From: a virus
Length of the DNA stretch: 64,000 nt
Virus record (IMG/VR): IMGVR_UViG_3300046779_002349
Span: 86,180-150,179 of that record
Direction: 5' to 3' (one strand)
This document shows positions 15,121 through 62,622 of the stretch, in pieces. The stretch's first letter is position 1; each line of letters starts with the position of its first letter. A model generated the notes under the pieces. That model had not been told where the DNA came from. It was given only the letters and a program-made list of their open reading frames with translations, and did no database searches. The position numbers and the translations under genes are program-made.

Positions 15121-15336
15121 TTATATGGTTATTTTAACTTTTGTGTGATTAACTTTCTTTGGTCTTTCATCTATGAGGGCCCCATTTGAATTTTCGTAGT
15201 AGATTACCTTACCATTAGCATTGTATTCTGCTTTGCTCCAGTAACCACCTGCTTCTTCGTAGTAGGTTACATTGTCGTTAGCATCCTTAATAACATAAGG
15301 AAATTCTGTGATACCATTTTGCTGTGCTAGAGTCAT
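15121..15336 (-). CDS. MTLAQQN-family 21-aa-repeat protein with C-terminal tag
   Basis: 71 aa; ends KKVNHTKVKITI. Confidence 0.85.
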   Translation of the reverse strand: MTLAQQNGITEFPYVIKDANDNVTYYEEAGGYWSKAEYNANGKVIYYENSNGALIDERPKKVNHTKVKITI

Positions 15337-15611
15337 ATAGTTAATTGAACTTTTGTGTGATTAACTTTCTTTGGTCTTTTATCTATGATATCGCCAAATG
15401 AATCTTCGAAGTAGATTAAGTTTTCTTTTTCATCGTATTCTCTTTTGCGCCAGTAACCAAGTGAATTTTTGCAGTAGGTTTCATTACCTCTAGAATTGTA
15501 TTCTGACTTGTACCAGTAACCGTCTGCATTCTCGAAGTAAATAATTCTTCCTTTTTCATCCTTAATAATATAAGGAAATTCTGTGATACCATTTTGCTGG
15601 GCTAGTGTCAT
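15333..15611 (-). CDS. MTLAQQN-family repeat protein with C-terminal tag
   Basis: 92 aa; ends NHTKVQLTI. Confidence 0.85.
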   Translation of the reverse strand: MTLAQQNGITEFPYIIKDEKGRIIYFENADGYWYKSEYNSRGNETYCKNSLGYWRKREYDEKENLIYFEDSFGDIIDKRPKKVNHTKVQLTI

Positions 15612-15886
15612 ATAATTATTTTAACTTTTAGATGATTAACTTTCTTTGGTCTATTGTCTCGGATATACCCAGATGAATCTTCGAAGTAGATTACATTGTC
15701 GTTATAATCATATTCTCTTTTGCGCCAGTAACCATATGCATTTTCGCAGTATGTTTCCTTACCGCTAGCATCATATTCTACCTTGTACCAGAAACCATCT
15801 GCATTTTCGTAGTAAATACTTCTTCCTTTTTGATCTCGAATAATATAAGGAAATTCTGTGATACCATTTTGCTGTGCTAGAGTCAT
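15608..15886 (-). CDS. MTLAQQN-family repeat protein with C-terminal tag
   Basis: 92 aa; ends NHLKVKIII. Confidence 0.85.
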   Translation of the reverse strand: MTLAQQNGITEFPYIIRDQKGRSIYYENADGFWYKVEYDASGKETYCENAYGYWRKREYDYNDNVIYFEDSSGYIRDNRPKKVNHLKVKIII

Positions 15887-16161
15887 ATAGTTAATTGAAC
15901 TTTTGTGTGATTAACTTTCTTTGGTCTTTTATCTATGATATCGCCAAATGAATCTTTATAGTAAATTAACTTTCCTTTTTCGTCATGTTCTCTTTCACTC
16001 CAGTAACCAGTTGAATCTTCACAATAAGTTACATTGCTGTTGGCGTCATATTCGCTTTTGACCCAGGAACCACTTGGATTTTCTAAGTAAATAATTCTTC
16101 CTTTTTGATCTCGAATAATATAAGGAAATTCTGTTATATTATTTTGTTGCGCTAGTGTCAT
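15883..16161 (-). CDS. MTLAQQN-family repeat protein with C-terminal tag
   Basis: 92 aa; ends NHTKVQLTI. Confidence 0.85.
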   Translation of the reverse strand: MTLAQQNNITEFPYIIRDQKGRIIYLENPSGSWVKSEYDANSNVTYCEDSTGYWSEREHDEKGKLIYYKDSFGDIIDKRPKKVNHTKVQLTI

Positions 16162-16436
16162 ATAGTTATTTTAACTTGTAAATGATTAACTTTCTTTGGT
16201 CTTTTGTCTACGATGGTCCCATCGTAATCTTCGTAGTAGATTAAGGTTCCTCGTGCATCATATTCTGCTTTGCGCCAAAAACCAGTTGACTCTTCGTAGT
16301 ATGTTTTCTTACCATTAGAATCATATTCTGATTTGAACCAGGAACCACTTGAATCTTCGTAGTAAATACTTCTTCCTTTTTGATCTCGAATAATATAAGG
16401 AAATTCTGTAATTCCGTTTTGCTGGGCTAGTGTCAT
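16158..16436 (-). CDS. MTLAQQN-family repeat protein with C-terminal tag
   Basis: 92 aa; ends NHLQVKITI. Confidence 0.85.
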   Translation of the reverse strand: MTLAQQNGITEFPYIIRDQKGRSIYYEDSSGSWFKSEYDSNGKKTYYEESTGFWRKAEYDARGTLIYYEDYDGTIVDKRPKKVNHLQVKITI

Positions 16437-16648
16437 ATAGTTATTTTAACTTTTGTGCGATTAACTTTCTTTGGTCTTTTATCTATGAGGGTCCCATTTG
16501 AATTTTCGTAGTAGATTGCCTTGCCAGTAGCATTGTATTCTGCTTTGCTCCAGAAACCATATGCATTTTCGTAGTAGGTTTCCTTACCTCTTTCATCCTT
16601 AATAATATAAGGAAACTCTGTAATTCCATTTTGTTGAGCTAGTGTCAT
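16433..16648 (-). CDS. MTLAQQN-family repeat protein with C-terminal tag (start set at 16648)
   Basis: 71 aa from MTLAQQN; ends NRTKVKITI. Confidence 0.85.
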   Translation of the reverse strand: MTLAQQNGITEFPYIIKDERGKETYYENAYGFWSKAEYNATGKAIYYENSNGTLIDKRPKKVNRTKVKITI

Positions 16649-16885
16649 ATGTTTAACAGTAAACTTCAACAATAGTGTATTGCTTATTAGTCGTGAGGAG
16701 TAATTCTTTAATTGTGTTCAAAGCTTCGTCTTTAGAATACATTAACGTTCCGGCTGGCCCATCTGGAACAACTAACGTTCCTGCTGGCGCAGCTGGAACG
16801 TCGAAAATATCTACCCCTCCATGCCAGCGGTAATGAATTTCCATAATTTTATAATATATGTGAATGTTGTCGCTTAGTTTTTTGC

Positions 16886-17272
16886 TCATAAAGTAATTGT
16901 TGTTTTTGTGATGCTTAAGTGTTTAGAATCTCTTATATGTAGAAAGAAATATTCATCTATCTGATGTGTGCTTATATCTTCGAATGTTGATGGAATATTA
17001 ATCATACACCCATTTAGCGTAAGCTCTTTATTGCCAACCAGTGATGTATTTTCCAAGTCTTCACGCATTAGATAAACGTAGAACAATAAGTTTTTGTATT
17101 GGTATATTTTACAGCCGCCTAATTTATAGGCAAAAGATTTTAATTTTTTTTTATGCTGAGGTAAAACAGCTACAGCTATTTTGTCTGTTACTGTTATCCA
17201 ATAACTTAATGTTTTGTCATTTACTGCCTCTGCGGCAATATTAATTATTTTCTGCCTTAATGTGTCACTCAT
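16886..17272 (-). CDS. tagged hypothetical protein, second family
   Basis: TLRQKIINI N-terminus shared with its two neighbours; ends SITKTTITL. Confidence 0.75.
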   Translation of the reverse strand: MSDTLRQKIINIAAEAVNDKTLSYWITVTDKIAVAVLPQHKKKLKSFAYKLGGCKIYQYKNLLFYVYLMREDLENTSLVGNKELTLNGCMINIPSTFEDISTHQIDEYFFLHIRDSKHLSITKTTITL

Positions 17273-17643
17273 AATGTAATTGTTGTTTTCTGTAGATTTA
17301 CAGTTTTTGCGTCTCCTAGTTTTATAAATCTGTAAAATCCAATTCTGTGGGTTTCCAGATGGTTAAACCTATAAGGGATGGCGACTAGTAATCCTCTAGG
17401 GTCTGCTATCGTAGGTTCATCCAATATATGCCCCACGAGAGTAGTATAGACAAATTGATCTGAGCTTTCGTAGGCTGGACTGTTTATTGCCTTAGAAAAC
17501 CGGATTAATAAATCTGTATCTTTTGGAAAAGCAACTAAAGCAATGTCAACCTTATTGCCTATAAACTTTATCAGATCTGGGTCTGGGCTTACTTCTTTTA
17601 AAATATTGATTACTTTTTCTCTTAGAGTTATTAATGCGTTCAT
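17269..17643 (-). CDS. tagged hypothetical protein, second family
   Basis: TLREKVINI; ends NLQKTTITL. Confidence 0.75.
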   Translation of the reverse strand: MNALITLREKVINILKEVSPDPDLIKFIGNKVDIALVAFPKDTDLLIRFSKAINSPAYESSDQFVYTTLVGHILDEPTIADPRGLLVAIPYRFNHLETHRIGFYRFIKLGDAKTVNLQKTTITL

Positions 17644-18014
17644 AAAGTAATTGTTATTTTCTGTAGATTTACAGGTTTAAAGTCTCCGAGTTTTACAAAA
17701 TAGTACCCATTTATTTCGTGGGTGTGTGCTATCCAATGCGGAGTATTTAAAAGAAACCCACGAGGGTTTGCTGTTGTTTCCTTATCCCGCAATGCTTTTG
17801 AAAGAGTAACGTAGGGAAAATTGGTTTTTGTCGCTCCTACTATATTTAAGCTTATTGCAAAATCAATTAATTTATCTTTGTCTGCAAGAAAAGCAGCCAA
17901 CGCAAGGTTTGCACTTGTGTTAATAACATAATCCTCTAGAGCTTCGTCTGGGTTTACCTCTCTTATGATATTAAGTATTTTTTCTCCTAGAGTTCGTGGT
18001 TTGTACGTGTCCAT
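17640..18014 (-). CDS. tagged hypothetical protein, second family
   Basis: TLGEKILNI; ends NLQKITITL. Confidence 0.75.
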   Translation of the reverse strand: MDTYKPRTLGEKILNIIREVNPDEALEDYVINTSANLALAAFLADKDKLIDFAISLNIVGATKTNFPYVTLSKALRDKETTANPRGFLLNTPHWIAHTHEINGYYFVKLGDFKPVNLQKITITL

Positions 18015-23561: not shown

Positions 23562-23568
23562 GTTAAAG

Positions 23569-23651
23569 TGGTCTAGGGGGGACTCGAACCCCCATGCCTT
23601 TTGGGCAACGGATTTTAAGTCCGCAATGTCTGCCTATTCCATCACTAGACC
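23569..23651 (-). tRNA. trnL: tRNA-Leu (anticodon TAA)
   Basis: GGTCTAG/CTAGACC acceptor stem, GCGGA-CTTAAAA-TCCGT anticodon arm, long variable arm, GGGGG-TTCGAGT-CCCCC T arm; CCA not encoded. Confidence 0.95.
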
Positions 23652-24476: not shown

Positions 24477-24692
24477 TTAGCTCAACCGTTTCGTTATTGT
24501 TTCTACCGTATCTTTACTACGTAGAGAGCCTGTGAAGGTGTAGGGGAACTTTAGTTCTAGGCGAAGCTCTAGCAACATAATATCCAAGGAATCTAATCCA
24601 AGGGAGCCTAGACTTTTGTTTAAATCTAGATCTTTTGGCTGTATCCCCAGAATGTCGCATATCTGGCAAATAATAATAGTTTTTGTGTTCAT
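24477..24692 (-). CDS. acyl carrier protein-like
   Basis: LGSLGLDSLDIMLL phosphopantetheine-site motif; start MNTK overlaps the upstream stop. Confidence 0.7.
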   Translation of the reverse strand: MNTKTIIICQICDILGIQPKDLDLNKSLGSLGLDSLDIMLLELRLELKFPYTFTGSLRSKDTVETITKRLS

Positions 24693-25162
24693 CTTTTTCT
24701 GCGTAGAGTCCACATAGCAAAACCTAAACCAATAAGGAGTGTCTGGGAAGGTTCTGGAATAGCTACGGATTTAGGAACCCATACATTATCCTTATAGACA
24801 ACTCCTCCTACTTGCACAGTAGCTTTTCCTACTACTGGGGTGGAAACAGTTTCAAAAATAAATGTAATTGGTCTTGAGCTATTGGATGTGGGATTCAACG
24901 TCCAAGAAATTGACTCATCCTCAATGGTTACTGGATAAACAACTGGTACTCTCACAAAGTCTATAACCACTGGACCATCGAAGAAAATATCAATATCCTC
25001 TAGATTGCCTACGTTGATGTTTCTAGGAGTGATCTGGTAGGAGTAACGAAATGTGCCAGGAACTACCTCGGATACGCTAGAATTGATGTACTGGTTAAAT
25101 GTAGTTGTAACTGCTGAAAAAGCAGTTGTTACTGTAAAGAGTAGAATAGCTAAAGTTTTCAT
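24689..25162 (-). CDS. PEP-CTERM sorting-domain surface protein
   Basis: Signal peptide MKTLAILLFTVTTAFSA; C-terminus IPEPSQTLLIGLGFAMWTLRRKR. Confidence 0.9.
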   Translation of the reverse strand: MKTLAILLFTVTTAFSAVTTTFNQYINSSVSEVVPGTFRYSYQITPRNINVGNLEDIDIFFDGPVVIDFVRVPVVYPVTIEDESISWTLNPTSNSSRPITFIFETVSTPVVGKATVQVGGVVYKDNVWVPKSVAIPEPSQTLLIGLGFAMWTLRRKR

Positions 25163-27459: not shown

Positions 27460-28305
27460 TTAATCTACAGGGATTGTTTTATTAGCCGTATCCCGAATAT
27501 CGATGAGAATTGCAGCTAATTTCTCAGTAGACTTACTTTCTCCAGGAGTATAGTGATAGAGGTAGCTACTCGCTTTAGAGTAAATCTCTTGTAACTTAGT
27601 CGCATACAAATCCCTCTGGTCTTTAATTGATTTTATTTTCAAATCAATGAGGATATCTACTTCTGGTTGATATTCAGTCATACCGACACCACCAACCGTT
27701 TTACTCAGCATAGCAAAAGAGGCTGCACGTTCCTCACTTACGGTTCTGTGAGCTCTCTGCCATTTTTCTACTTCGCTTGGTAATGTAGTTCCTTTATGCT
27801 GCATAAGAGCTTTCCTTGCTTTGTCTAGCTCGGATTTAAGTTCCTCTATCTGAGAGACTAGCTGTTTAGCAGCATCAACAACGTCAGGGGTTTCTGCAGT
27901 GTCTAATTCTTTAACTTTTTTCAGAGTTTCATCAATTTCTTCCATAATAATAATCTTTGGTTCGTGGTACTTAACTAGTTCTCTTGCTTTAAGGATTGCC
28001 GTAATTAGTAAATCCTTCTGCTTGGTAAGTGTCTCGTTTTCTTTATATTCAGCAGAATACTCCTGAGCAAGTTGTTTTACTAACTCGGGTAGATTTTCTT
28101 CTGTGTGATTGGGAACGTAACTGCAAGGAATCTGATAAAGAGTATCTTTCAATATCTTTCTAAGGCGAGTTAGTTCCTGTTCTCGCTCGACTACAGAAAT
28201 ATTAGGATGCGACTCATGCAATTTTTTTATCTCTTCTGGAAAGAGTCTATGAAAAGAATCTTCCCCGTCTTTGGAAATATTTACAGCTTCAATTTGTGTA
28301 CTCAT
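27460..28305 (-). CDS. coiled-coil hypothetical protein
   Basis: 281 aa, E/K/L-rich. Confidence 0.6.
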   Translation of the reverse strand: MSTQIEAVNISKDGEDSFHRLFPEEIKKLHESHPNISVVEREQELTRLRKILKDTLYQIPCSYVPNHTEENLPELVKQLAQEYSAEYKENETLTKQKDLLITAILKARELVKYHEPKIIIMEEIDETLKKVKELDTAETPDVVDAAKQLVSQIEELKSELDKARKALMQHKGTTLPSEVEKWQRAHRTVSEERAASFAMLSKTVGGVGMTEYQPEVDILIDLKIKSIKDQRDLYATKLQEIYSKASSYLYHYTPGESKSTEKLAAILIDIRDTANKTIPVD

Positions 28306-28682: not shown

Positions 28683-29425
28683 AATTTTATTTTAGGGTTA
28701 ACTTCTTCATCCCAGCGTCTGTGAAAAGAAGACTGGTATCCTCGTTGTCTTCAATTAGCTGATCTATTACTTCAGCTAGTTGATCTAATCTGTGCTCGTT
28801 GTAGTTGAAATGTCCTCCACTCATAACGCGTTATTAAAAATTACGAACGCCATAGATTCTTACTTCGCGTTCGTGTAGCTTATAGGTTTCCAGTTTTCTT
28901 TTAATTGATCGTGTGTAATAATTTCCGTCATTACCTTCATATTCCTCCTCTTCCCCAGTTTCCTCAGTGTCGAAGATTCTCTCAACAGGATAAAAGGAAC
29001 CTAATCCGTATTTGACTGTTTTATTAAATTCTTTTTCGAATTTGTAATCAACATGTGTTCCATTGTAAAATGCCACTTTATTTTCATCTCGGAACATACG
29101 ACGATCTTTGATGTCGTAATTTCTTGAAGAGGTATAATTATTGTTATACTTCTGACGAATTTGAATTAACTGGTCGTCTCCTGATAGGATGTTGCAAAAC
29201 TCGTCCCATGTAATTTCTTTTTCGATTATCTTATGTGGTTCGCTCATGATCTATTAGCAAATATGTTTGATACAATAATAGATACGCCTAAAGCAATACA
29301 ATACCATACTGCTTGTGAATAAGATAAATTTTCACTAAGCAGTACGGTAATTAAAATTGCAAAAGGAGTCGTAAGTATAATAAACGTAGGTAAAATCTTA
29401 ATTAATAATCTCAGAATGGTCATAG

Positions 29426-30691
29426 TTACTTGCTCCCAAGTAAGTTATACCCTCCTGTCTTTTGTGCCAAGTCAAAATTTCTGTCTACGAAATCAATGAC
29501 TTCTTTAGGATCTATGTCTCTTGGAAAGATGATATTCGGGCCGTGATTATCCAACATGACCGCCTTCAAGTTTCCAAATTGTTTCAATCCGTCACTAGTC
29601 TGTTGCCCACATTGATGTGAACCACATTCTACCTCTCTCTGAGATTTGATGGGTATTTCATCTGGGTGATTATCCTTTAGAGGTGAATGAAAGTGGAGTA
29701 CACAATCATATCCAGTATGATCTCTAAAGATTATTCTCTGGCTTTGACCGCCCACACTAGGCTTTGCTCCATAAGCTAAAACAGTATCCGCAGAATCGCT
29801 TCTTACATATACTAACCCAACCTCAGCTAAATTGTTGAAATTGGATTTTCTAATAGATGTAAGGAATTCAGTATCGGAAAGCTTTACAGCAAAATGACCT
29901 ACTGTGGAATCTCCAAAGGGTTTATAAGCATCGTGTTTAATACAATGCTCAACGGCTGTTCTTAATGAATCAGGAACTCGTTCGTCGCTCCAAGGAACTG
30001 GACTACCTTCTACAACGGTGGAGCGAGTAAAGGTTAGTTGAGAACGGTAGAAAACCATATCAACTAAACCTCTCAGTACTTCATCCCTGTCGTTTGTTTC
30101 GTGATACGCAGCTTCTTCTGGTGTAACAATCATGTTCCACCGAGTTTTCGTATCATTCACTAAGACTAGGTTGCATGAGCTTTTCTTGCAAAGATACAGT
30201 CCTTTTTCATACATCTCTTGTTTAGAAGCTCCACATGTAGTTTTAAAAGCTACAAGAGTAATGTCCTTTCTCTCTTTACGGAATACATCAACTACTTTTT
30301 CCTTATTGGGAACAAGCTGTGCATCATATGTATTCGCTGAGTTTAGTCTTCCTGAGTACTTTGGATTCTCACCTTCCCTTAGTTCAGGAGCGTTTACTAC
30401 CATATTAAAATCACATACTGCAGGACACCAAATAACAATTTTTGTCATAGGGTCGGCTACAATATTTTCTGCTAATTTTTTGAGGTCTGTAGGACTTTGT
30501 AAATGATGTGCTCCTCCAGCCATGGACGTAAGGTGTAACTCTACATCCATTTTATCGAACCGCTCTTTACAGAACTGTTCTAGTTTTCTGGCTGTTGTAC
30601 CAAAAGCAGGAGCACAAAGACCAAGATGGCAGCTGCTATGGGCTACAGTTCCACCACCTACAATATGTATTTTTTTGTTATGATTGTTCAT
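29426..30691 (-). CDS. fusion of a CoaB/DFP-like domain and a class II aldolase/adducin-like domain
   Basis: N-terminal PAVCDF, LVAFKTT, LVLVND; C-terminal GHFAVK..FLTS, KPS, VLHFHSP, MLDNHG. Confidence 0.65.
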   Translation of the reverse strand: MNNHNKKIHIVGGGTVAHSSCHLGLCAPAFGTTARKLEQFCKERFDKMDVELHLTSMAGGAHHLQSPTDLKKLAENIVADPMTKIVIWCPAVCDFNMVVNAPELREGENPKYSGRLNSANTYDAQLVPNKEKVVDVFRKERKDITLVAFKTTCGASKQEMYEKGLYLCKKSSCNLVLVNDTKTRWNMIVTPEEAAYHETNDRDEVLRGLVDMVFYRSQLTFTRSTVVEGSPVPWSDERVPDSLRTAVEHCIKHDAYKPFGDSTVGHFAVKLSDTEFLTSIRKSNFNNLAEVGLVYVRSDSADTVLAYGAKPSVGGQSQRIIFRDHTGYDCVLHFHSPLKDNHPDEIPIKSQREVECGSHQCGQQTSDGLKQFGNLKAVMLDNHGPNIIFPRDIDPKEVIDFVDRNFDLAQKTGGYNLLGSK

Positions 30692-34854: not shown

Positions 34855-35133
34855 TTATAACGTTAATTGAATAACCTCGTGATTCAATTTTCTTTTTCTT
34901 TCGCCAATAATAAATCCAGTACAATCTTCGTAGTAAACTAGGTTATCATCCGAGTCGAATTCTCTTCTGTACCAAGTCCCCTTTGAGTCTTCGTAGGATA
35001 CTATGTTGTCTAGCGTGCCATATCTTTTCTTGGTCCAGAATTGATCGTGATTTTCCCAGTAAACTTCTCTGCCTTTTTCATCATTAATAACATAAGGAAA
35101 TTCTGTAATTCCATTTTGCTGTGCTAGTGTCAT
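34855..35133 (-). CDS. solitary divergent MTLAQQN-family protein with C-terminal tag (start set at 35133)
   Basis: 92 aa from MTLAQQNGITEFPY; ends LNHEVIQLTL. Confidence 0.85.
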   Translation of the reverse strand: MTLAQQNGITEFPYVINDEKGREVYWENHDQFWTKKRYGTLDNIVSYEDSKGTWYRREFDSDDNLVYYEDCTGFIIGERKRKLNHEVIQLTL

Positions 35134-36750: not shown

Positions 36751-36780
36751 AAGAGAGGGAGATTTTACTCTCCCTCTCTT
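36751..36780 (-). terminator. probable intrinsic terminator
   Basis: AAGAGAGGGAGA/TCTCCCTCTCTT hairpin with a T-run nearby. Confidence 0.7.
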
Positions 36781-36788
36781 TAATTACT

Positions 36789-37871: not shown

Positions 37872-37886
37872 ACGGTTAGTTAAATA

Positions 37887-37948
37887 GGCATGATTGCCAT
37901 ACGCTTGTGCGTTTCGGATTATATGCCGGTAATCCTCATCAGTGGCAA
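37887..37948 (-). ncRNA. type I hammerhead ribozyme
   Basis: TTGCCA-CTGATGA-GGATTA(CCGGCATA)TAATCC-GAA-ACGC(ACAA)GCGT-A/TGGCAA; the full core is present, and loop II GGCAT can pair with the 3' ATGCC. Confidence 0.9.
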
Positions 37949-37957
37949 GTTATAAAT

Positions 37958-46193: not shown

Positions 46194-47485
46194 CGGGGCA
46201 TATGGGTCGCAAACCCCGCCCTTCAGGGCGGCTTTCAATTTATTATGTAATTTTCTTGTTGACATTTTTTAATTAGTGGTTATCTTTCAATTCAAGATGC
46301 AGCGCGCATACCAATACAGATTCTACCCAACCCCTGAGCAGGAATCACTGCTTAGGCGTACGATTGGGTGTTGTCGGTTTGTATACAACCGCGCTTTAGC
46401 GATTCGTCAAGAAGCATGGGTTCAAAGAAGCGAAAAGATTTCTGGTTTTGACCTCATCAAGAAAATAACGCTATGGAAAAAGGAAGAGGAAACTCAATGG
46501 TTGAAAGAGGTTTCCAGCGTTCCACTTCAGCAAGCAATAAATAATCTTGAGGTCGCTTATCAGAACTTTTTTGCCAAGAGAGCTAAACATCCGACATTCA
46601 AAAAGAAGTCATCTGGTGGGTCATGCAGATTCACCGAGTTTGCCTTTCGCATCAAGGATGGGGATGTTTGGCTCGCTAAAACTAATGCTCCACTAGACAT
46701 TCGTTGGAGTCGCCCACTCCCAGAAGGTGCAAAGCCAAAGCAATGCACCGTCAGGCTAACGCCGTCTGGAAAGTGGTTTATTTCTTTTCTGTGCGATGTT
46801 CAAATCCAAAAGCTGCCGCCCTCTAGCCAATCAGTAGGATTGGATATGGGAATATCCGCATTAGTTACTTTGTCCACTGGGGAGAAAATAACCAACCCTA
46901 AGCTGATGAGGGAGTATCGCAAAAGACTCGCGACAGCTCAGCGACACCTTTCTAGGAAGAAGGTTGGCAGTAAGCGCAGAGAACGAGCAAAGATAAAAGT
47001 TGCACGCATCCACGAAAAGATTTCAAACACAAGGAAAGATCAATTGCACAAACTCACAACTCGACTCGTTCGCGAAAACCAAACGATTGTAGTAGAGGAT
47101 TTGAATGTGAGAGGCATGCTCAAAAACCATTGCTTGGCTGGCTCCATATCGGACGCAAGTTGGCATCAGTTAAAGAGCATGCTTGAATACAAGTGCGGCT
47201 GGTATGGGCGGGAACTTAGGGTCATAGACCGTTGGTATCCGTCATCTAAGACATGCAGCAATTGCGGTCATGTCGTCAGAAAGTTGCCACTTGCAATCCG
47301 TGAATGGAAATGCCCGTCATGTTCGGCAATCCATGATCGTGATGTAAATGCAGCGATCAACATTTTATCGGCGGGAATCGTCGATTACACTCGTGGAGAA
47401 GGCGTGAAACCGAAGCGGATGAAATCCGTGGACGTAGCCCTCAATGAAGCGAGAATCCCTGCCCTTTAGGGCGGGGAGGATTCAA
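46194..47485 (+). mobile_element. IS200/IS605-family element with TnpB only (IS1341-like)
   Basis: TTGAT directly 5' of the element, CCGCCCTTCAGGGCGG left hairpin, CCCTGCCCTTTAGGGCGGGG right hairpin, TTCAA right end; removing it restores a clean host gene end. Confidence 0.85.
46297..47469 (+). CDS. tnpB: RNA-guided endonuclease TnpB
   Basis: AYQYRFYPT, RFVYNRAL, RuvC residues GLDMG / VVEDL / DRDVNAA, and CxxC...CxxC zinc ribbon. Confidence 0.97.
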   Translation: MQRAYQYRFYPTPEQESLLRRTIGCCRFVYNRALAIRQEAWVQRSEKISGFDLIKKITLWKKEEETQWLKEVSSVPLQQAINNLEVAYQNFFAKRAKHPTFKKKSSGGSCRFTEFAFRIKDGDVWLAKTNAPLDIRWSRPLPEGAKPKQCTVRLTPSGKWFISFLCDVQIQKLPPSSQSVGLDMGISALVTLSTGEKITNPKLMREYRKRLATAQRHLSRKKVGSKRRERAKIKVARIHEKISNTRKDQLHKLTTRLVRENQTIVVEDLNVRGMLKNHCLAGSISDASWHQLKSMLEYKCGWYGRELRVIDRWYPSSKTCSNCGHVVRKLPLAIREWKCPSCSAIHDRDVNAAINILSAGIVDYTRGEGVKPKRMKSVDVALNEARIPAL

Positions 47486-49484: not shown

Positions 49485-49766
49485 TCATATAGTTAATTGA
49501 ACTTTTAAATGGTTGACTGGTTTCTTTGGTCTTTTGTCTATTATGTTCCCATCGGAATCTTCGTAGTAAATTCTGTTTCCTTTTTCGTCGTATTCTTTTT
49601 TAGTCCAGTAACCAATGGAATCTTCGAAGTAGGATCTATTTCCTTTTGCATCATATTCTAATTTATGCCAGTAACCACTTGAAGTTTCGTAGTAGGTTTG
49701 CCTCCCGTGCGTATTCTTAATAATATAAGGAAACTGTGTAATTCCGTTTTGCTGTGCTAGTGTCAT
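49485..49766 (-). CDS. MTLAQQN-family repeat protein with C-terminal tag
   Basis: 93 aa; ends NHLKVQLTI. Confidence 0.85.
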   Translation of the reverse strand: MTLAQQNGITQFPYIIKNTHGRQTYYETSSGYWHKLEYDAKGNRSYFEDSIGYWTKKEYDEKGNRIYYEDSDGNIIDKRPKKPVNHLKVQLTI

Positions 49767-50044
49767 ATAGTTACTTTAACTTTTAGATGGTTGACTGGTT
49801 TCTTTATTCGTTTGTCTAATATATTACCTATTGAATCTTCGTAATAAATTACTTCTCTTTTATCGCTGTATTCTTTTTTAACCCAGTAACCAAATGAATT
49901 TTCGAAGTAGTTTTCCTTACCATTAACATCATATTCTGATTTATACCATAAACCACCTGAATCTTCTAAGTAGATTATATTGCCGTTAGCATCCTTAATA
50001 ATATAAGGAAACTGTGTAATTCCATTTTGTTGGGCTAGAGTCAT
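49763..50044 (-). CDS. MTLAQQN-family repeat protein with C-terminal tag
   Basis: 93 aa; ends NHLKVKVTI. Confidence 0.85.
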   Translation of the reverse strand: MTLAQQNGITQFPYIIKDANGNIIYLEDSGGLWYKSEYDVNGKENYFENSFGYWVKKEYSDKREVIYYEDSIGNILDKRIKKPVNHLKVKVTI

Positions 50045-50385
50045 ATAGTTAATTGAATCTTTGAATGATTAACTGGTTTCTTTGGTATTTCATCTATGAT
50101 GGTACCCTCGTAATCTTCGTAGTAGATTACATTGCCGCTATCATCATATTCTTTTTTATACCAGGTACCTCCTGAATTTGCGTAATAGATTACCTTGCCG
50201 ATAGCATTGTATTCTGCTTTGCGCCAGAAACCAATTGAATTTTCGTAGTAGGTTTCCTTACAGTTAGCATTGTATTCTGACTTGTACCAATAACCATCTG
50301 CCTCTTCGAAATATACCCTGTTTCCTTTTTCATCCTTAATAATATAAGGAAACTGTGTAATTCCATTTTGCTGTGCCAGAGTCAT
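50041..50385 (-). CDS. MTLAQQN-family repeat protein with C-terminal tag
   Basis: 114 aa (one extra 21-aa unit); ends NHSKIQLTI. Confidence 0.85.
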   Translation of the reverse strand: MTLAQQNGITQFPYIIKDEKGNRVYFEEADGYWYKSEYNANCKETYYENSIGFWRKAEYNAIGKVIYYANSGGTWYKKEYDDSGNVIYYEDYEGTIIDEIPKKPVNHSKIQLTI

Positions 50386-50726
50386 ATAGTTAATTGAACT
50401 TTTAAATGGTTGACTGGTTTCTTTGGTCTACGGTCTATAATTACACCCCTTGAATCTTCGGAATAAATTAATTCTCTTTTATCATCATATTCCCTTTTGC
50501 GCCAATAAACATTGAAATCTTCGTAGTAGGTTATATTGCCACTAGCATTGTATTCTGTTTTGAGCCTGTAACCACTTGAATTTTCGTAGTAAGGTACTTT
50601 ACCGTTAGTATCAAATTCTCTTTTGTACCAGTAACCACTTGAATCTTCGTAGTAAATAATTCTTCCTTTTTGATCTCGAATAATATAAGGAAATTCTGTA
50701 ATGTTATTTTGTTGCGCTAATGTCAT
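50382..50726 (-). CDS. MTLAQQN-family repeat protein with C-terminal tag
   Basis: 114 aa; ends NHLKVQLTI. Confidence 0.85.
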   Translation of the reverse strand: MTLAQQNNITEFPYIIRDQKGRIIYYEDSSGYWYKREFDTNGKVPYYENSSGYRLKTEYNASGNITYYEDFNVYWRKREYDDKRELIYSEDSRGVIIDRRPKKPVNHLKVQLTI

Positions 50727-54285: not shown

Positions 54286-54286
54286 A

Positions 54287-56704: not shown

Positions 56705-57097
56705 TTAAAGTGTTATTGTAATTTTTTCCAACCTGGTATTTACTAAATTCAAACCTAACCATCCCCAACTGTGTTCAGGTTGATTGGGGCTTTCAAGAAA
56801 CAAATCTTTTGCTCCTGCTTTTGTTAGTAGATCAACTCCGCTTATGGACGACACATACAGGTAAATCTTTTTGTACCCTAATTCTTTAATTCTTGCCGCT
56901 CTATTCCCCTCCCTAGGGAATCTTTTAAACGCAGTAACTGGAATATTGTACGCAGTGTAAAAAGATGTGAAAACATCATCTGGTTTAGATACTCCTATTA
57001 TCCATGCCTCAGAAAAGGTATTTTTAAACAAATCTGCGACAGTAAACTGATGTCCGTTGAGTTGTAGTACACTGTTAAAAAACTGCGCATTTGTCAT
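56705..57097 (-). CDS. tagged hypothetical protein, third family
   Basis: 130 aa; ends RLEKITITL. Confidence 0.75.
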   Translation of the reverse strand: MTNAQFFNSVLQLNGHQFTVADLFKNTFSEAWIIGVSKPDDVFTSFYTAYNIPVTAFKRFPREGNRAARIKELGYKKIYLYVSSISGVDLLTKAGAKDLFLESPNQPEHSWGWLGLNLVNTRLEKITITL

Positions 57098-57495
57098 AAC
57101 GTTATTGTAATTTTCTGATGATTAGTTAGTGAATAGACTAAGGGAAACCACAGCCCTAAGTTTGTTGTGTAACCATATTTATTTTTCAATACTTCTAGTC
57201 CATTACTGGATAGATATGCAAACAATTTTAAGCCTGGGTGATCTGACGGTCTAGGTAGTTCTAATTTTGGGGGAATATAACTCCAGTGTCTAACTCCTTG
57301 AGCGTAAAAAGGGTCTGACTCCTCTCTAAAGTACCAATCCGTCTTTAAAAAAGTAGAGGACGCTCCTATAGCGAATCTTATATTTGTTGGTCCGTAGGTA
57401 GTTACAAATGAAGTAATATAAAATAATTTCTCCGGATCTTCTCTTGTTATCCCTAGTTTTTCTAATGTATTTTCAATAATAGAGATGTAAGTCAT
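57094..57495 (-). CDS. tagged hypothetical protein, third family
   Basis: 133 aa; ends NHQKITITL. Confidence 0.75.
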   Translation of the reverse strand: MTYISIIENTLEKLGITREDPEKLFYITSFVTTYGPTNIRFAIGASSTFLKTDWYFREESDPFYAQGVRHWSYIPPKLELPRPSDHPGLKLFAYLSSNGLEVLKNKYGYTTNLGLWFPLVYSLTNHQKITITL

Positions 57496-57890
57496 AGTGT
57501 GATGTGTACTTTCTGATTTCTAACTGGTCGCATAATTAGTGGTAGCCAATTCCCTAAGTTTTGAGGGCGGCCATATTTTGCATGCAAAATAGCTACTCCA
57601 TCAGAAGATAAATAAGCCCACAGTTTAATGTTATTGTAACCTTTCGGAGGTTTGAACTCCTGATGTATATGAATACAACCCCAAAATTGGATACCTTCCT
57701 GGTAAAGATGAGATCCTTTGATAATTTCGTGAACGTTTACCTCTATAGGAAATATATCCACTGGGCTAGCGATACAACAAAGTCTCCTATGATAGTGATT
57801 GCCTGATATGAAATACAAGAATTCCTCAGGGGGTTCATCTGTTACGCCTAAGCGTTCTAATGTCTGCCTAATAATATCTAGATAAGTCAT
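57492..57890 (-). CDS. tagged hypothetical protein, third family
   Basis: 132 aa; ends RNQKVHITL. Confidence 0.75.
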   Translation of the reverse strand: MTYLDIIRQTLERLGVTDEPPEEFLYFISGNHYHRRLCCIASPVDIFPIEVNVHEIIKGSHLYQEGIQFWGCIHIHQEFKPPKGYNNIKLWAYLSSDGVAILHAKYGRPQNLGNWLPLIMRPVRNQKVHITL

Positions 57891-58288
57891 AGTGTGATAT
57901 GCACTTTCTGTAAGTTCTTTTCGTTAATAAAATTAACAGCTAATGGAATCCATCTTCCTGTAGGCGAAGTGTAATTGTAATTCTCCGATAAAACAAATAC
58001 CGCCCTCTCGGCGATATAGGCGAATAACTGTAGGTTATCTAATGCGGATTGATTGTTAGGTATTTCACTGGTAAGTCGGATTTGCGTCCAGTATTTTACA
58101 CCCCGCGAATAAAACGGAGAACAGTTCGTTCTGTGCGTCCATGGACTAACGAGAAATTTTTCAGAAGCTCCTAAAACAACACAATTGTTTTCCCGTTGTG
58201 AATGATAGATAAGGTTATTATTTATGTATTCCCAATCATGAATTCCTATTTTTTTAAAATTGTAATGAATTATTTCTTGAGCGGTCAT
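57887..58288 (-). CDS. tagged hypothetical protein, third family
   Basis: 133 aa; ends NLQKVHITL. Confidence 0.75.
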   Translation of the reverse strand: MTAQEIIHYNFKKIGIHDWEYINNNLIYHSQRENNCVVLGASEKFLVSPWTHRTNCSPFYSRGVKYWTQIRLTSEIPNNQSALDNLQLFAYIAERAVFVLSENYNYTSPTGRWIPLAVNFINEKNLQKVHITL

Positions 58289-58665
58289 AGTGTGATTTGT
58301 ACTTTTTTGTGGTTGATATTCTTTAGGTCTATCTCAAGCCAAGCAGTTTCTGCGTATGGTTCTCGAAAAATTTTATACGCCTTCCTTTCTCGGAAAAATT
58401 CCTTGCCTTCTCGATCCAGGTAAAGGTAAAGTGGTGTTTTTAAAGTTCTTAAATACTGTACTTGTTTATACAAGTGTAAAGAAAAACTACGCCACCCCTT
58501 TACAGGTATGTTTTCTACGTTGTATCTCTGATCGAAAATATCGCATTTAACTGTTGTTCCCAGTACTATTGAAGAGGGTCTGTAATCATAGGCTATTTCA
58601 TCTACGGTGACGGAATAGCCCATCGATACTAATCTTGTATTAAGAAAGTCTTCTAAAGTAATCAT
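58285..58665 (-). CDS. tagged hypothetical protein, third family
   Basis: 126 aa; ends NHKKVQITL. Confidence 0.75.
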   Translation of the reverse strand: MITLEDFLNTRLVSMGYSVTVDEIAYDYRPSSIVLGTTVKCDIFDQRYNVENIPVKGWRSFSLHLYKQVQYLRTLKTPLYLYLDREGKEFFRERKAYKIFREPYAETAWLEIDLKNINHKKVQITL

Positions 58666-59045
58666 AATGTGATTTGAATTTTTTGATTATTAACGCGGTT
58701 TGTTTTTATCTCAAGCCAAGAAGCACAATCACCAAAGAGTTTCTCCAAAAAAATATAAGGTACTTTTTTTTCTAAAAGATATTGTGTTGCTTCCCTACTT
58801 AAATAAAGGTAAATTGGTTTTTTTAAATTATTTAAGTAAGGTAATATTTCAGTATTATTTATTGAAATACTACACCAGGCCTTAACAGGGATATCTGGTA
58901 AGCGATACTGGAAGTCAAATACATCACATTTTTCTGTTGTACCTAATACTAATTCTTCGTCTCCATAGGGGTAATATATTTCTTCTACAGTTAGGGAATA
59001 TCCCATGGATAATAGTCTACCATTAAGAAATTGTACAATGTTCAT
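58662..59045 (-). CDS. tagged hypothetical protein, third family
   Basis: 127 aa; ends NNQKIQITL. Confidence 0.75.
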   Translation of the reverse strand: MNIVQFLNGRLLSMGYSLTVEEIYYPYGDEELVLGTTEKCDVFDFQYRLPDIPVKAWCSISINNTEILPYLNNLKKPIYLYLSREATQYLLEKKVPYIFLEKLFGDCASWLEIKTNRVNNQKIQITL

Positions 59046-59458
59046 TAGAGAGTAATTGAGATTTTTTGTAGGTTTAATGATTCTTCAAATGTAGTCCTTA
59101 GTCCTAGCCAAGCCCCTACAGGAAAACCGAATATGGGCATATTAGCTTTCATAATCTCAGGTATACGAGTCTCGTTTTTTACTTCTAGAAATACAAATAT
59201 TTTTAAGTTCTCCTGTTCAATGTGCGGATAAACTTCTTTACCTTTGTCCGTGAAATAAAAGCCGCTATTTTTAAATTTTCCAATTCTGTAAGCATGAAAC
59301 TGAGAATATCCAGCTTGCTTTATTTTTTTTGGTGGATGTGAAAATCCAATAGCTATTTCGTTTTTATCAATACTTGAATCCGTCCACACGTATTTTTTGA
59401 ATTCTAATGGAACATTCGCTTTTTTAAAATTTAAATCAATTAGTTCTTCGTATGTCAT
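59045..59458 (-). CDS. tagged hypothetical protein, third family
   Basis: 137 aa; ends NLQKISITL. Confidence 0.75.
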   Translation of the reverse strand: MTYEELIDLNFKKANVPLEFKKYVWTDSSIDKNEIAIGFSHPPKKIKQAGYSQFHAYRIGKFKNSGFYFTDKGKEVYPHIEQENLKIFVFLEVKNETRIPEIMKANMPIFGFPVGAWLGLRTTFEESLNLQKISITL

Positions 59459-59536: not shown

Positions 59537-61375
59537 TTAGAACTTGCCTGTCTGCTTGATGTTTTCGCCGAAGCCTACGCCGACTGCAACTCTAGGAGCC
59601 CAGTGAATGTTTTCTTTAACATTAGTAGTTCCTGCTCTCAAGGCGCTATCCTCTAATTGTTTTTTAAGATATGATGTACTGAGACCTGCAAGCCAATCAT
59701 CGTTGTAGTGACTAGCTGTACGTAAGCGATCCATGTTTGGAGCAAATGGAGGTGGGTCCTCTGAAACTTCTAGCTCATTGAATCCCACTTCCTGTAACTG
59801 CTTTTGAATACTTGGAGTGATTCTAGTTCCTATCGTGTGCTCCAATGTATCTTTAGTGAGATACTTGTTCGTGGTCATTTGAATGGGTTTGACAACAGAA
59901 TTTTGGGGCTTCCATACTTTCTTAACCTTGTTGTAATTAATCGTGTCGTCAGCATAGGCATCTAGACCCTCAATTTCTTCATTGAGAGAAACTGTATCTA
60001 GTGTACCTCTTGCCACAATTTCGAGATTCTTTTTATCCGCATAGAGGCCTGAGTCTTTATAGATTTTTTGAATTCGATCTACCCAGTATTTTCTACCAGC
60101 GCCAAGTCCTACTTTTTCAACTACGTCGCGAGCATCAACAATGCCTTCCGACAAAGGTGTTCCTGCTTCTATGGTTTGTCCTACCTTTACGGTGAGAGGG
60201 TACCCAGGTTTTACGTAGTATTGTTTGTTATTAACAGTAACATTATAACCGCCTTGTGGAGCTTCTTCAATCTGGCTTACTTGCCCATCTTCATCAGATG
60301 TAATCGCTTTATGAATATACTCAGAAGGGCTTTGTACAAATTGGCTGAGGATAGGAAAACCACCGTACTCACCTTTTTGTGTAGCCTGACCACCAGTGTG
60401 TTTGGCCGAGAGCGCCCCTTGGGTCACTGGCTCGGACAAAGCATTTGCTGCAGTAATACCTATATGTTCGCCAATTTTAGGAAATCTTTTTTCAAATGTA
60501 ACTCCAACACATTGTGAGCATAGTCCATCTGCATTACAAGTAAGTGGTGATCTGGCTACAACTTTGTTTACGTTACTCTTTTTAAGGTCAGCAATAACTT
60601 CTCTGGTCAACAGTGTACCAGCCTTGAAGTTACCAGCATCTTTTGCAAGAACTCTGTTTCTCGCGGTATTGTCGTCGATGTCATAAGCTAAACCATTTTG
60701 AACTCCGCAATCTTTATCTGTAACAACAAGTCGAGCAGAGGCTTGGCTCAAAAGTTTTCCATAGTCACCACCTTTAGCAGTAGCCGCTTTTGTAGAAATT
60801 ACAGAAGCTCTAGCTCCGAACATACCTGCTGCAAACTCTAGGGGTCTTAAACCTTCAGCAAATGAGTTCTCAACAAACATGGGAACAATGTCGCCTTTTG
60901 AGTCAGCGTACAAACCTGGGGTAGTAAGCATAGCCTGCATCTGTGAGGGTTTTCCCCTAGCTCCAGAAATAACAGCATGACCAATTTTGTTGTTGGTTGC
61001 TTTTGCCCCTGCCATGGTATTTTTCAACATCATGTCATTATACTTCACCCAGATAGCTTCTCTGGCTTTTTTAAATTGATCAGTATTTCCGAGCTTTTGT
61101 TTAGCTGCGGCAATTTCGTCATTCATAGCAGCCAGTAGCAGAGGTTTATCTACTACTGGCTCAAAGTCTTCTAGTCCTAAAGTCTCGCCTTGAATGTAAG
61201 CAGCTTTAGCTCCCAATCTTCCTAAGTCGTGTGAAATTTTTTTGTACTGATCTGGGTAATTCGTATAGAGATCTACAAGGAAGTCATTTACGTTCGATCC
61301 AGATAAATCAGTTAATTTACCTCGCAACTCTGCGGGTACTATTTCGTCAACTAAAAGGTCAATTGCTCTTGGCAT
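59537..61375 (-). CDS. rpoC: DNA-directed RNA polymerase beta' subunit, C-terminal part (split subunit)
   Basis: SGARG, GLRPLEF...GARASVISTKAATAKGG (bridge helix), DCG, RSPLTC..GLCSQCVG, GEHIGITAANALSEPVTQGALSAKHTGG (trigger loop); no NADFDGD motif. Confidence 0.92.
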   Translation of the reverse strand: MPRAIDLLVDEIVPAELRGKLTDLSGSNVNDFLVDLYTNYPDQYKKISHDLGRLGAKAAYIQGETLGLEDFEPVVDKPLLLAAMNDEIAAAKQKLGNTDQFKKAREAIWVKYNDMMLKNTMAGAKATNNKIGHAVISGARGKPSQMQAMLTTPGLYADSKGDIVPMFVENSFAEGLRPLEFAAGMFGARASVISTKAATAKGGDYGKLLSQASARLVVTDKDCGVQNGLAYDIDDNTARNRVLAKDAGNFKAGTLLTREVIADLKKSNVNKVVARSPLTCNADGLCSQCVGVTFEKRFPKIGEHIGITAANALSEPVTQGALSAKHTGGQATQKGEYGGFPILSQFVQSPSEYIHKAITSDEDGQVSQIEEAPQGGYNVTVNNKQYYVKPGYPLTVKVGQTIEAGTPLSEGIVDARDVVEKVGLGAGRKYWVDRIQKIYKDSGLYADKKNLEIVARGTLDTVSLNEEIEGLDAYADDTINYNKVKKVWKPQNSVVKPIQMTTNKYLTKDTLEHTIGTRITPSIQKQLQEVGFNELEVSEDPPPFAPNMDRLRTASHYNDDWLAGLSTSYLKKQLEDSALRAGTTNVKENIHWAPRVAVGVGFGENIKQTGKF

Positions 61376-61381
61376 TTCAAT

Positions 61382-61410
61382 ACTTTAGCACAGAAGATGA
61401 TGTAATTCAA
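61382..61410 (-). promoter_or_regulatory. sigma70-like promoter, leaderless
   Basis: TTGAAT-17-TAAAGT with a TG extension, 6 nt before ATG 61375. Confidence 0.55.
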
Positions 61411-61676
61411 TCACTAAAACAAAACGAGCTGTAGCTTACTTTTCTTAATTTTCTAGGTAGTGTCGAGATGGATAGCAAATTCGGTTCCACATCGGAAGAT
61501 AAAGAGACACAAAATGCGGATCTATTTTTAACTAATTCGCCAGAGGGTAGATACTCGAAATGGGTACCACATTCAAAGTGGCACTCCATCTCATTTTGTT
61601 TTGTTGTGTTGGCTGCACAGTAAGGGCATTCTTCTTGTAACATGGAGGTGTAGTGTTAGTCGGTTAATAAGCACAA

Positions 61677-62069
61677 TTATTTTAATACTCTTGTTAAAAA
61701 GGATAACAATTTCTGTTTTGTATAAGTTACTACTTTTTGTAAAGTTGATTTTGGTCTGTTGTCCACCAGATGTCCAAGTGAGTCTTTAAAGTAAATTAAT
61801 CTACCTTCGTCATCACTTTTTTTAATTGCCCAGTAGACTTGATCTGAATTTTTGTATTGATTCTGTATTCGGGTTAACCTACCGTTAACATCATATTCCA
61901 TATACTCGCAGTACCCGTCTGAGCTTTCGTAATATATTGTTTTTCCTGTAGAATCGAACTCTCTTTTGGTCCAGGAACCATTTGAATTTTCAATGTAAAT
62001 TCTGTTTCCCTTTTCATCATTAATAATGTAAGGAAACTGTGTGATGTTATTTTGTTGAGCTAGTGTCAT
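61677..62069 (-). CDS. MTLAQQN-family protein with an altered, extended C-terminus
   Basis: 130 aa; ends RPKSTLQKVVTYTKQKLLSFLTRVLK. Confidence 0.8.
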   Translation of the reverse strand: MTLAQQNNITQFPYIINDEKGNRIYIENSNGSWTKREFDSTGKTIYYESSDGYCEYMEYDVNGRLTRIQNQYKNSDQVYWAIKKSDDEGRLIYFKDSLGHLVDNRPKSTLQKVVTYTKQKLLSFLTRVLK

Positions 62070-62344
62070 ATAGTTACTTGAACTTTTGTGTGATTAACTT
62101 TCTTTGGTCTATCGTCTATTAAGATTCCATCTGAAGTTTCGTAGTAGGTTAACTTGCCGTTAGCATCATATTCTCTTTTTACCCAGAAACCATTTGAGTA
62201 TTCAGAGTAGGTTGCCTTGCCATTAGCATTGTATTCTGCTTTGCTCCAGATACCACATGCATTTTCGTAGTAGGTTTCCTTACCTTTTTGCCCTCGAATA
62301 ATATAAGGAAATTCTGTAACATTATTTTGTTGAGCTAGTGTCAT
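62066..62344 (-). CDS. MTLAQQN-family repeat protein with C-terminal tag
   Basis: 92 aa; ends NHTKVQVTI. Confidence 0.85.
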   Translation of the reverse strand: MTLAQQNNVTEFPYIIRGQKGKETYYENACGIWSKAEYNANGKATYSEYSNGFWVKREYDANGKLTYYETSDGILIDDRPKKVNHTKVQVTI

Positions 62345-62622
62345 ATAGTTACTTGAACTTTTGTGCGATTAAATTTCTTTGGTCTATTATCTCGGATATA
62401 CCCAGATGAATCTTCGTAGTAGATCTGATTTCCTTGACTGTCGTATTTTCTTTTATTCCAGTAACTATTTGAATCTTCGAAGGAGGTTACTTCTCCTTGC
62501 TGATCATATTCTGCTTTGATCCAGTAGCCATTTAAAGTTTCGTAGTAGGTTATATTTCCGTTAGCATCCTTAATAACATAAGGAAATTCTGTAACATTAT
62601 TTTGCTGGGCTAATGTTTGCAT
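62341..62622 (-). CDS. MTLAQQN-family repeat protein with C-terminal tag
   Basis: 93 aa; ends NRTKVQVTI. Confidence 0.85.
   Translation of the reverse strand: MQTLAQQNNVTEFPYVIKDANGNITYYETLNGYWIKAEYDQQGEVTSFEDSNSYWNKRKYDSQGNQIYYEDSSGYIRDNRPKKFNRTKVQVTI

Follow-up and report, generated by a model that had tools for sequence, protein, structure and literature searches.

The window analyzed here is a 64,000-nucleotide stretch (positions 86,180 to 150,179) of the 150-kb record IMGVR_UViG_3300046779_002349, which belongs to an uncultured freshwater phage and is 77% complete. Between positions 15,121 and 62,622 of the window, 23 small genes are found on the minus strand that end in the same short peptide (the tail). 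They belong to three families: family A (proteins with YD/Rhs-like repeats), family B and family C. The genes are as follows (window coordinates).

15121..15336, minus strand: family A, 71 aa, tail NHTKVKITI, TAA stop, no overlap with the next gene
15333..15611, minus strand: family A, 92 aa, tail NHTKVQLTI, structure predicted
15608..15886, minus strand: family A, 92 aa, tail NHLKVKIII (T replaced by I)
15883..16161, minus strand: family A, 92 aa, tail NHTKVQLTI
16158..16436, minus strand: family A, 92 aa, tail NHLQVKITI
16433..16648, minus strand: family A, 71 aa, tail NRTKVKITI
16886..17272, minus strand: family B, 128 aa, tail SITKTTITL
17269..17643, minus strand: family B, 124 aa, tail NLQKTTITL
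17640..18014, minus strand: family B, 124 aa, tail NLQKITITL
34855..35133, minus strand: family A, solitary copy, tail NHEVIQLTL, TAA stop; the start lies at MTLAQQN (92 aa) or 24 codons upstream at 35205
49485..49766, minus strand: family A, 93 aa, tail NHLKVQLTI
49763..50044, minus strand: family A, 93 aa, tail NHLKVKVTI
50041..50385, minus strand: family A, 114 aa (one more 21-aa unit), tail NHSKIQLTI
50382..50726, minus strand: family A, 114 aa, tail NHLKVQLTI
56705..57097, minus strand: family C, 130 aa, tail RLEKITITL, TAA stop
57094..57495, minus strand: family C, 133 aa, tail NHQKITITL, structure predicted
57492..57890, minus strand: family C, 132 aa, tail RNQKVHITL
57887..58288, minus strand: family C, 133 aa, tail NLQKVHITL
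58285..58665, minus strand: family C, 126 aa, tail NHKKVQITL
58662..59045, minus strand: family C, 127 aa, tail NNQKIQITL
59045..59458, minus strand: family C, 137 aa, tail NLQKISITL, TAATG junction
62066..62344, minus strand: family A, 92 aa, tail NHTKVQVTI
62341..62622, minus strand: family A, 93 aa, tail NRTKVQVTI

The first-pass annotation had described these 23 genes as carriers of a common C-terminal tag, and this observation was confirmed. All 23 exist at the places given and end in the tail, described by N-x-x-K-[VIT]-x-[ILV]-T-[IL]-COOH, although one member (15608) has I for the penultimate T. The codon usage reported by the annotation also holds: the Thr is encoded by ACC, ACT, ACA and ACG, and the last Leu by TTA, CTA, CTC and CTT (and by TTG outside the window), while the last Ile is ATA. 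The tail indeed persists without an ATGA overlap at 15121, 34855 and 56705, where the genes end in TAA. The three proteins at 16886-18014, which had been called unrelated, form one family (27-41% identical to each other) that is unrelated to the other groups.

The set is, however, larger than had been reported. The rest of the genome holds 11 more tail genes, at record positions 16824, 24483, 28959, 29426, 29896, 30345, 36455, 36904, 37347, 37799 and 38239. The total is thus 34 genes (16% of about 214), in at least eight families. The full consensus is K-x-[VLI]-N-[HL]-x-K-phi-x-phi-T-phi-COOH. A position matrix built without a given family still recognizes the tails of that family, and the scores are bimodal: 34 genes score 13 or more, whereas the next gene scores 3.4. 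Chance is excluded. The strict 9-residue motif is expected 0.0005 times at 214 C-termini and is seen 18 times, while inside genes it is expected 0.10 times and seen 0 times. The 6-residue core is seen 28 times at C-termini (0.025 expected) and 5 times inside genes (5.3 expected). Eleven tail genes lie within the replication/recombination module, interleaved with the polymerase, helicases, primase, RecA-like and SbcCD genes, a region that was not seen in the first-pass annotation.

The conservation acts at the protein level, as had been claimed. Information per nucleotide is lowest at codon position 3, and all Thr and several Leu/Ile codons are used. Between families, the synonymous sites of the tail are saturated (pS 0.74) while pN is 0.38. 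In the nine preceding codons, pS is 0.68 and pN is 0.65. In families B, C and D the tail is the best-conserved 9-residue window, with 58-78% identity against 19-38% for the body. An alternative genetic code (TGA as sense) could be rejected, since long genes are intact under table 11 and TGA ends 73 genes.

The bodies to which the tail is attached show no detectable similarity between families. BLAST of the proteins without their tails gave E above 0.1 between families, and hhalign probabilities were below 2% for every pair. Pfam and PHROGs searches with the tagged proteins returned nothing significant, and ESM Atlas searches with families B and E returned nothing usable. For family A, a profile of A7 (family A) matched Rhs proteins in the PDB (7q97, E 3.7e-5; Tse5; Tse15), and Foldseek aligned the AlphaFold2 model to 7q97 with E 8e-4 and an rmsd of 1.7 over 61 columns. 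Family A is therefore assigned to the YD/Rhs-type proteins, with tandem beta-hairpin repeats of about 21 residues in a single predicted sheet. The match covers the repeat only, and the shell and toxin parts of Rhs proteins are absent. Family C is predicted to adopt an alpha/beta fold, for which no match was found in PDB (Foldseek and a wide search with VIA) or BFVD. Only weak beta-grasp-like rows (Z of 3 or lower) were returned, and these are not relied upon.

Whether the tail would turn out to be an integral core strand of homologous folds had been named beforehand as a test of the tag hypothesis. For the two of the eight families that were folded, the outcome was in favor of the tag. In the family C model (57094..57495) the body (residues 1-120) is confident with pLDDT 84-94, while the tail (residues 125-133) is coil with pLDDT below 50. 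In the family A model (15333..15611) the body has pLDDT 92-98 and the tail (residues 81-92) is again coil, with pLDDT 62-69. The linkers before the tail vary in length. It should be noted that a low pLDDT on a terminal strand is also what would be obtained for a strand that pairs only in an oligomer.

The tail furthermore behaves as an exchangeable module. Of the 120 listed homologues of family A (out of more than 3000 hits), the roughly 117 distant ones from other phages end in other modules after the same RPK hinge, and only the nearest relative keeps the tail. Metagenomic relatives keep the tail on families A, B and C. All relatives found carry the same tail, so there is no lineage in which tag and reader could be seen to change together. 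A scan of IMG/VR with a strict tail-coding DNA pattern gave 47 hits, all short chance ORFs and none at a real gene end. Protein-guided IMG/VR scans with the 753-aa protein and with family D found no relatives, and a phage collection gave no match by DNA or protein. For the host, the best hit of the TnpB element (77% aa identity to a Spartobacteria MAG) is not decisive.

A reader of the tail was searched for in the phage record itself. Profiles for PDZ (PDZ_2), TPR, the beta-clamp (DNA_pol3_beta_3), gp45 (gp45-slide_C), PCNA (PCNA_N), SSB, gp32, gp2.5-like, RHH and MazE/AbrB proteins found nothing in this 77%-complete record. An AAA profile gave a single sub-threshold hit at window 27460-28305. 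The tails do fit the class II PDZ ligand pattern (phi-x-phi-COOH), with I/L/V at -3 and I/L at -1 in all 34 tails, but this criterion is very loose. They do not fit the sliding-clamp consensus (Q-L-[SD]-L-F or an aromatic-ended T4-type tail), as Q is not conserved across families and no tail has an aromatic residue.

Overall, the analysis demonstrates a short linear motif that is maintained by selection on the peptide, occurs only at C-termini, is restricted to this phage lineage, sits on at least eight families without detectable similarity, and is not packed into the fold in the two families that could be modeled. What the motif does is inferred from these properties. The favored, though still tentative, hypothesis is that of a docking or address tag read by one common partner. 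The last six residues alternate hydrophobic (-5, -3, -1) with polar (K -6, T -2) positions, as in an amphipathic beta-strand. In this view, the strand with its free carboxylate would add to a groove or sheet edge of the reader, and many different bodies would be brought to the same place or machine. The reader is thought more likely to be phage-encoded than host-encoded, as the tag and most of the tagged families exist only in this lineage. The position of eleven tagged genes among the replication genes would fit recruitment to the DNA-handling machinery of the phage. The identity of the reader and the consequence of docking, including any binding, turnover or localization, remain hypothetical. 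The interpretation of the first-pass annotation is hence only partly supported: the protein-level conservation, the unrelated bodies and, for the two families folded, the free tail hold, but no hub was identified, and the proposed library of adaptors that brings host defense proteins to such a hub is inference only.

Other explanations are considered less likely. The tail could be a C-terminal degron (a shared degron timing turnover was also raised in the first-pass annotation), where the nonpolar end with its free carboxylate and the upstream N-x-x-K part would be read by a host or phage AAA+ protease or its adaptor, so that the tagged proteins would be removed together at a set time. ClpXP, FtsH and Tsp recognize nonpolar C-termini, and the exclusive C-terminal position, the flexible, exposed tail and the two-part pattern would agree with this. 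However, a 12-residue motif conserved this tightly is more than known C-degrons need, and the tag is confined to one phage lineage whereas host proteases are widely conserved. Apart from the sub-threshold AAA hit, no protease or unfoldase gene was recognized in the record. Mimicry of tmRNA was rejected, as the phage contains no tmRNA gene. Equally unlikely is an association handle, in which the tails pair with each other or swap onto each other's bodies as beta-strands, giving homo- or hetero-oligomers among the 34 tagged proteins without a separate reader. The pattern K-I-T-I-T-L resembles the self-pairing N-terminal strand of ribbon-helix-helix proteins, and the tail is unplaced in the monomer models. 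Nevertheless, no RHH_1 hit was found in six frames at E up to 10, the MazE/AbrB profile gave none either, and the tail is followed by a stop codon rather than by the two helices of this fold. A two-stranded ribbon alone would leave a hydrophobic face exposed, and there is no obvious benefit in cross-linking unrelated proteins.

It is also unlikely, but conceivable, that families B to I are one fast-evolving superfamily of which the last strand is the only recognizable remnant, with the tail packing on each protein's own body and family A having acquired or converged on it. Families B, C, D, F and G have similar sizes (124-159 aa), are lineage-specific orphans and have a hydrophobic strand just before the tail, although only family C of this group was folded. 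On the other hand, the family C model leaves the tail free behind a variable linker, family A has a clearly different predicted fold and also leaves it free, and hhalign detected no relationship. Even under common descent, selective retention of only the tail needs a function. A by-product of the gene junction, with the last codons constrained as DNA or RNA by the start of the next gene (translational coupling or a promoter) or kept alike by recombination, is very unlikely and already largely refuted. In its favor, 28 of the 34 tail genes overlap the next start by ATGA, and within families A and B the tail has a lower pS than the body (0.25-0.27 against 0.49-0.56), which suggests some gene conversion at junctions. 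In another phage (L004), a conserved intergenic DNA motif does create "LKN-stop" endings on about a fifth of the proteins. Such conserved protein ends can thus be pure DNA artifacts, and each finding of this kind needs the synonymous-site test used here. In the present phage, however, the synonymous sites are saturated between families, no tail-like DNA lies upstream of starts in intergenic regions, about 30 other ATGA junctions lack the tail, and the tail persists at TAA stops with no overlap.

A further, more speculative and unlikely possibility is that the phage has its own protein-sorting code, in which a PTS1-like C-terminal signal on about one sixth of its proteome would be read by a single phage-encoded receptor that routes unrelated effectors and replication helpers to one phage-built site or machine. 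Lineage-specific tags of this kind would then be instances of a general, undescribed principle of phage cell biology. If one reader exists, the tag would give a direct handle on it and would group 34 proteins of unknown function into one pathway. It could also be used as a portable tag for delivering proteins inside infected cells.

Shared terminal peptides that plug unrelated proteins into one reader are known for a few replication proteins, for degrons and for organelle import. They are not known as a feature of a sixth of a phage's genes spread over eight unrelated families, and literature searches for a described phage system of this kind found none. The C-terminal tails of phage replication proteins (T4 gp43, gp33 and gp55 on the gp45 clamp; the acidic tails of T7 gp2.5 and gp4 on gp5) are also short peptides at the extreme C-terminus of unrelated proteins, read by one partner, and some tagged genes here lie in the replication module. 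The sequence differs, though, with no Q-L-x-L-F and no aromatic or acidic end. There are 34 tagged proteins, including multi-copy paralogue arrays, instead of a handful of enzymes, and no clamp or SSB gene was recognized in the record. SspB-type adaptors with a C-terminal ClpX-binding (XB) tail combine a variable substrate-binding body, a flexible linker and a short C-terminal strand that docks by beta-addition, and together with the ssrA degron they offer a two-part motif that needs a free end. The tails here, ending in [ILV]-T-[IL], do not match LRVVK, L-A-A or the R-x-K-K-A-phi type consensus, and involvement of a protease would be conjecture.

The peroxisomal targeting signal 1 (SKL-COOH with about 9 upstream residues, read by the TPR domain of Pex5) is a C-terminal signal of about 12 residues on dozens of unrelated proteins that requires the free carboxylate. 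It is eukaryotic and has another consensus, no TPR protein was found in the phage record, and no compartment is known for this phage. The capsid-targeting sequence of T4 internal proteins and the cargo-loading peptides of encapsulins resemble the tail in that diverse small proteins in hyperplastic loci share only a terminal tag of roughly 10 residues, which loads them into one structure. The T4 tag is, however, N-terminal and cleaved by the prohead protease, whereas the present motif occurs only at C-termini, and the encapsulin consensus is absent. Protein import into the phage nucleus of Chimalliviridae (PicA pathway) likewise routes many phage proteins selectively by a phage-encoded reader. 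In that case no conserved signal sequence was found, and recognition was reported to use a surface patch and not an N- or C-terminal signal (PMC11087766). Here the candidate signal is a linear C-terminal peptide, and no shell gene was recognized. Finally, the poxvirus ankyrin/PRANC (F-box-like) adaptors, to which the first-pass annotation had compared the tagged proteins, also combine a variable binding body with a constant C-terminal docking element in expanded paralogue families. PRANC is a folded domain of about 50 residues on one repeat family, while here a 9-12-residue peptide, predicted to be unfolded in the two families modeled, sits on unrelated bodies.

The phage record in IMG/VR is 150,179 bp long and is rated 77% complete by CheckV, with the window forming its last 64 kb. 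Nearly all genes lie on the minus strand. The observation of the first-pass annotation holds: the 23 genes that it named are real open reading frames and they end in the C-terminal tail that it described. These 23 genes, in window coordinates, are:

15121-16648, 34855, 49485-50726 and 62066-62622, the 13 'MTLAQQN' repeat proteins (family A)
16886-18014, three proteins of 124-128 aa (family B)
56705-59458, seven proteins of 126-137 aa (family C)

A scan of the whole genome adds 11 more genes, bringing the total to 34 of about 214. These are listed in genome coordinates (the window coordinate equals the genome coordinate minus 86179):

36455-38718, five genes of family D
28959-29899, two genes of family F
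29896-30791, two genes of family G
24483-25109, the 208-aa protein E
16824-17399, the 191-aa protein I

Two further genes have weak look-alike ends. An Rv2179c-like 3'-5' exonuclease of 197 aa and a 142-aa protein (L001:11214-11807 and L001:10789-11217 in locus L001, in the same ATGA-coupled array as families F and G) end in the degenerate tail-like sequences NKLIIL and NELTL, respectively, which score near background. When the tails are aligned from the C-terminus, the motif extends to about 12 residues: K-x-[VLI]-N-[HL]-x-K-phi-x-phi-T-phi-COOH.

Chance is excluded as the origin of this motif. The strict 9-mer is expected 0.0005 times at 214 C-termini and occurs 18 times, while inside genes it is expected 0.10 times and occurs 0 times. 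Similarly, the 6-residue core occurs 28 times at C-termini against 0.025 expected, and five times inside genes against 5.3 expected. A position matrix built from all families but one still scores the left-out family far above the 99.9th percentile of internal positions, the second member of family F being the exception. The scores over all gene ends are bimodal, with 34 genes scoring 13 or more and the next gene scoring 3.4. An alternative-frame open reading frame inside a family C gene (window 57593-57736) does contain NLRKVTITL ten residues before its stop, but about one such six-frame match is expected by chance.

Whether the conservation resides in the protein or in the DNA had to be established because of a case found in another large phage. 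In locus L004 of that phage (L004:1-20381, and also in locus L005), which carries a distant homologue of family A, nearly every small gene is preceded by a conserved DNA motif (AAAACTAGAaTAcAATT...CATG; (TT)AAAAACTAGAaTAcAATTnnnnCATG). About a fifth of its proteins end in 'LKN-stop' only because this motif overlaps the stop codon. This is a clear case of a conserved protein end that is a by-product of the DNA, probably of a promoter or leader element.

In the present genome, however, that explanation fails. The 40 bases upstream of all other starts show no tail-like motif, and about 30 other ATGA overlaps lack the tail. The information per nucleotide is lowest at third codon positions, and all four Thr codons and five Leu codons are used. 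By Nei-Gojobori counting between families, the nine tail codons have saturated synonymous differences (pS 0.74) but a pN of 0.38, whereas the nine codons just before have a pS of 0.68 and a pN of 0.65, as for unrelated sequence. The tail also persists at TAA stops with no overlap, and translation table 11 was confirmed to be the right code. Within families A and B the pS of the tail is lower than that of the body. Some gene conversion at array junctions is therefore likely, but it cannot explain the sharing between families.

Other features of gene expression were observed as well. The phage carries a tRNA-Leu(TAA) gene (window 23568-23651), and UUA is the commonest last codon of the tails. 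A tRNA(CAT) and a tRNA-Arg(TCT) lie outside the window, at genome 43538-43694. No Shine-Dalgarno-like sequence precedes the starts (window 4000-12000 and whole genome) and the upstream regions are A-rich. Several genes have a TATAAT-like box 10-14 nt before the ATG, preceded by a T-run, which suggests very short leaders.

The bodies that carry the tail show no detectable relationship. Without the tails, BLAST gives no between-family hit better than an E-value of 0.1, and hhalign gives a probability below 2% for every pair. Family A is a small YD/Rhs-type beta-hairpin sheet: its profile hits Rhs proteins in the PDB (E 3.7e-5) and its AF2 model superposes on RhsA with an rmsd of 1.7 Å over 61 columns. 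Family C is confidently predicted (pLDDT 83) to fold into an alpha/beta domain, for which no match was found in the PDB or BFVD. Families B, C and D are orphans. Homologues of B and C occur only in a few related metagenomic contigs, and D has none among 1.8 billion representatives.

In neither of the two models is the tail a core strand. In family C the body up to residue 120 has block-mean pLDDT values that are mostly 84-94, while residues 125-133 are below 50 and coil. Here the tail lies behind a linker that varies in length within the family. In family A the body has a pLDDT of 92-98, and residues 81-92, which follow the RPKK hinge, have values of 62-69 and are coil. In families B, C and D the tail is the single best-conserved 9-residue window, with a mean pairwise identity of 58-78% against 19-38% for the body.

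Relatives from lake metagenomes, including a 62-kb JGI contig and several ENA and JGI contigs, are syntenic and keep the tail on A (1 copy), B (2-3 copies) and C (5 copies). They lack the six-gene family A array (window 15121-16648) that lies between family B and the lipoprotein/RlpA-like genes. In the related phages (L065:6630-8145 and L066:2923-4077), family B is instead followed directly by the 68-aa gene. The array is therefore a recent expansion, with 13 copies of family A here against 1 seen in the relatives' fragments, and the reduced synonymous divergence at its junctions suggests gene conversion. Another difference concerns the RNA polymerase beta'-like gene, which is 612 aa here (window 59537-61375) but 1009 aa in the related phage (L006:339-3368), where Pfam hits indicate a Hint/LAGLIDADG intein. 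Another relative has a 764-aa form with a Hint domain.

Family A has more than 3000 homologues in metagenomes and no described function. Among the listed homologues, the roughly 117 from other phages have the same N-terminus, repeats and RPK hinge, but end in other modules of about 20-30 residues, and only the nearest relative keeps the tail. In two other large uncultured phages (L068:5258-16306 and L069:3145-12111), family A, with its conserved N-terminus M-x-TIAQQLN-x-x-FPF, forms arrays of 7-9 copies. Each of these arrays has its own uniform C-terminal module, which is not shared with other families there. As one such module begins with T-V-E-I-T-L, the tail may derive from the first strand of an ancestral family A module, although this is inferred from six residues. 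A search of IMG/VR with a strict tail-coding DNA pattern found nothing real, and the tag appears confined to this lineage. A weak hint to the host comes from a plus-strand TnpB/IS605-type gene in a region of higher G+C (window 46276-47469), whose best genomic relative is 77% identical at the amino acid level and lies in a Spartobacteria (Verrucomicrobiota) MAG.

The tagged genes outside the window are interleaved with the replication and recombination module. I lies just before a RecA-like gene, E between a DnaB-like helicase and a primase, F and G between the exonuclease and an SF2 helicase, and D just before SbcD/SbcC. The tagged genes in the window, on the other hand, lie among small accessory genes and next to the RNA polymerase beta'-like gene and a metallophosphoesterase.

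Taken together, the analysis demonstrates a position-specific, flexible C-terminal peptide that is conserved at the protein level, sits on unrelated bodies and is limited to one phage lineage. Its function, in contrast, is inferred: the tail would be an address or docking tag, read by one partner through strand addition and the free carboxylate. This remains a tentative reading, as is any binding to such a partner, and the interpretation of the first-pass annotation, in which the tail docks on one shared partner, is only partly supported. A phage-encoded reader is favored because both the tag and most of the tagged families are lineage-specific. However, no reader was identified. Profiles for PDZ, TPR, clamps and SSBs find nothing in the incomplete record.

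Other explanations are considered less likely. The tail might serve as a degron, or it might mediate tail-to-tail or strand-swap association, and these two possibilities are given the same low weight. A hidden common fold in which the tail plays a structural role is judged slightly less likely still, while a by-product of the gene junctions is very improbable.

Literature searches found no description of this tag. For nucleus-forming phages, the published import pathway explicitly lacks a linear signal (PMC11087766). The principle of a short terminal peptide that is shared by unlike proteins and read by one partner is nonetheless known, as exemplified by the T4 and T7 replication tails, ssrA and SspB, PTS1, the T4 capsid-targeting sequence and encapsulin cargo peptides. 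The tail described here matches the consensus of none of these and is far more widespread within one genome.
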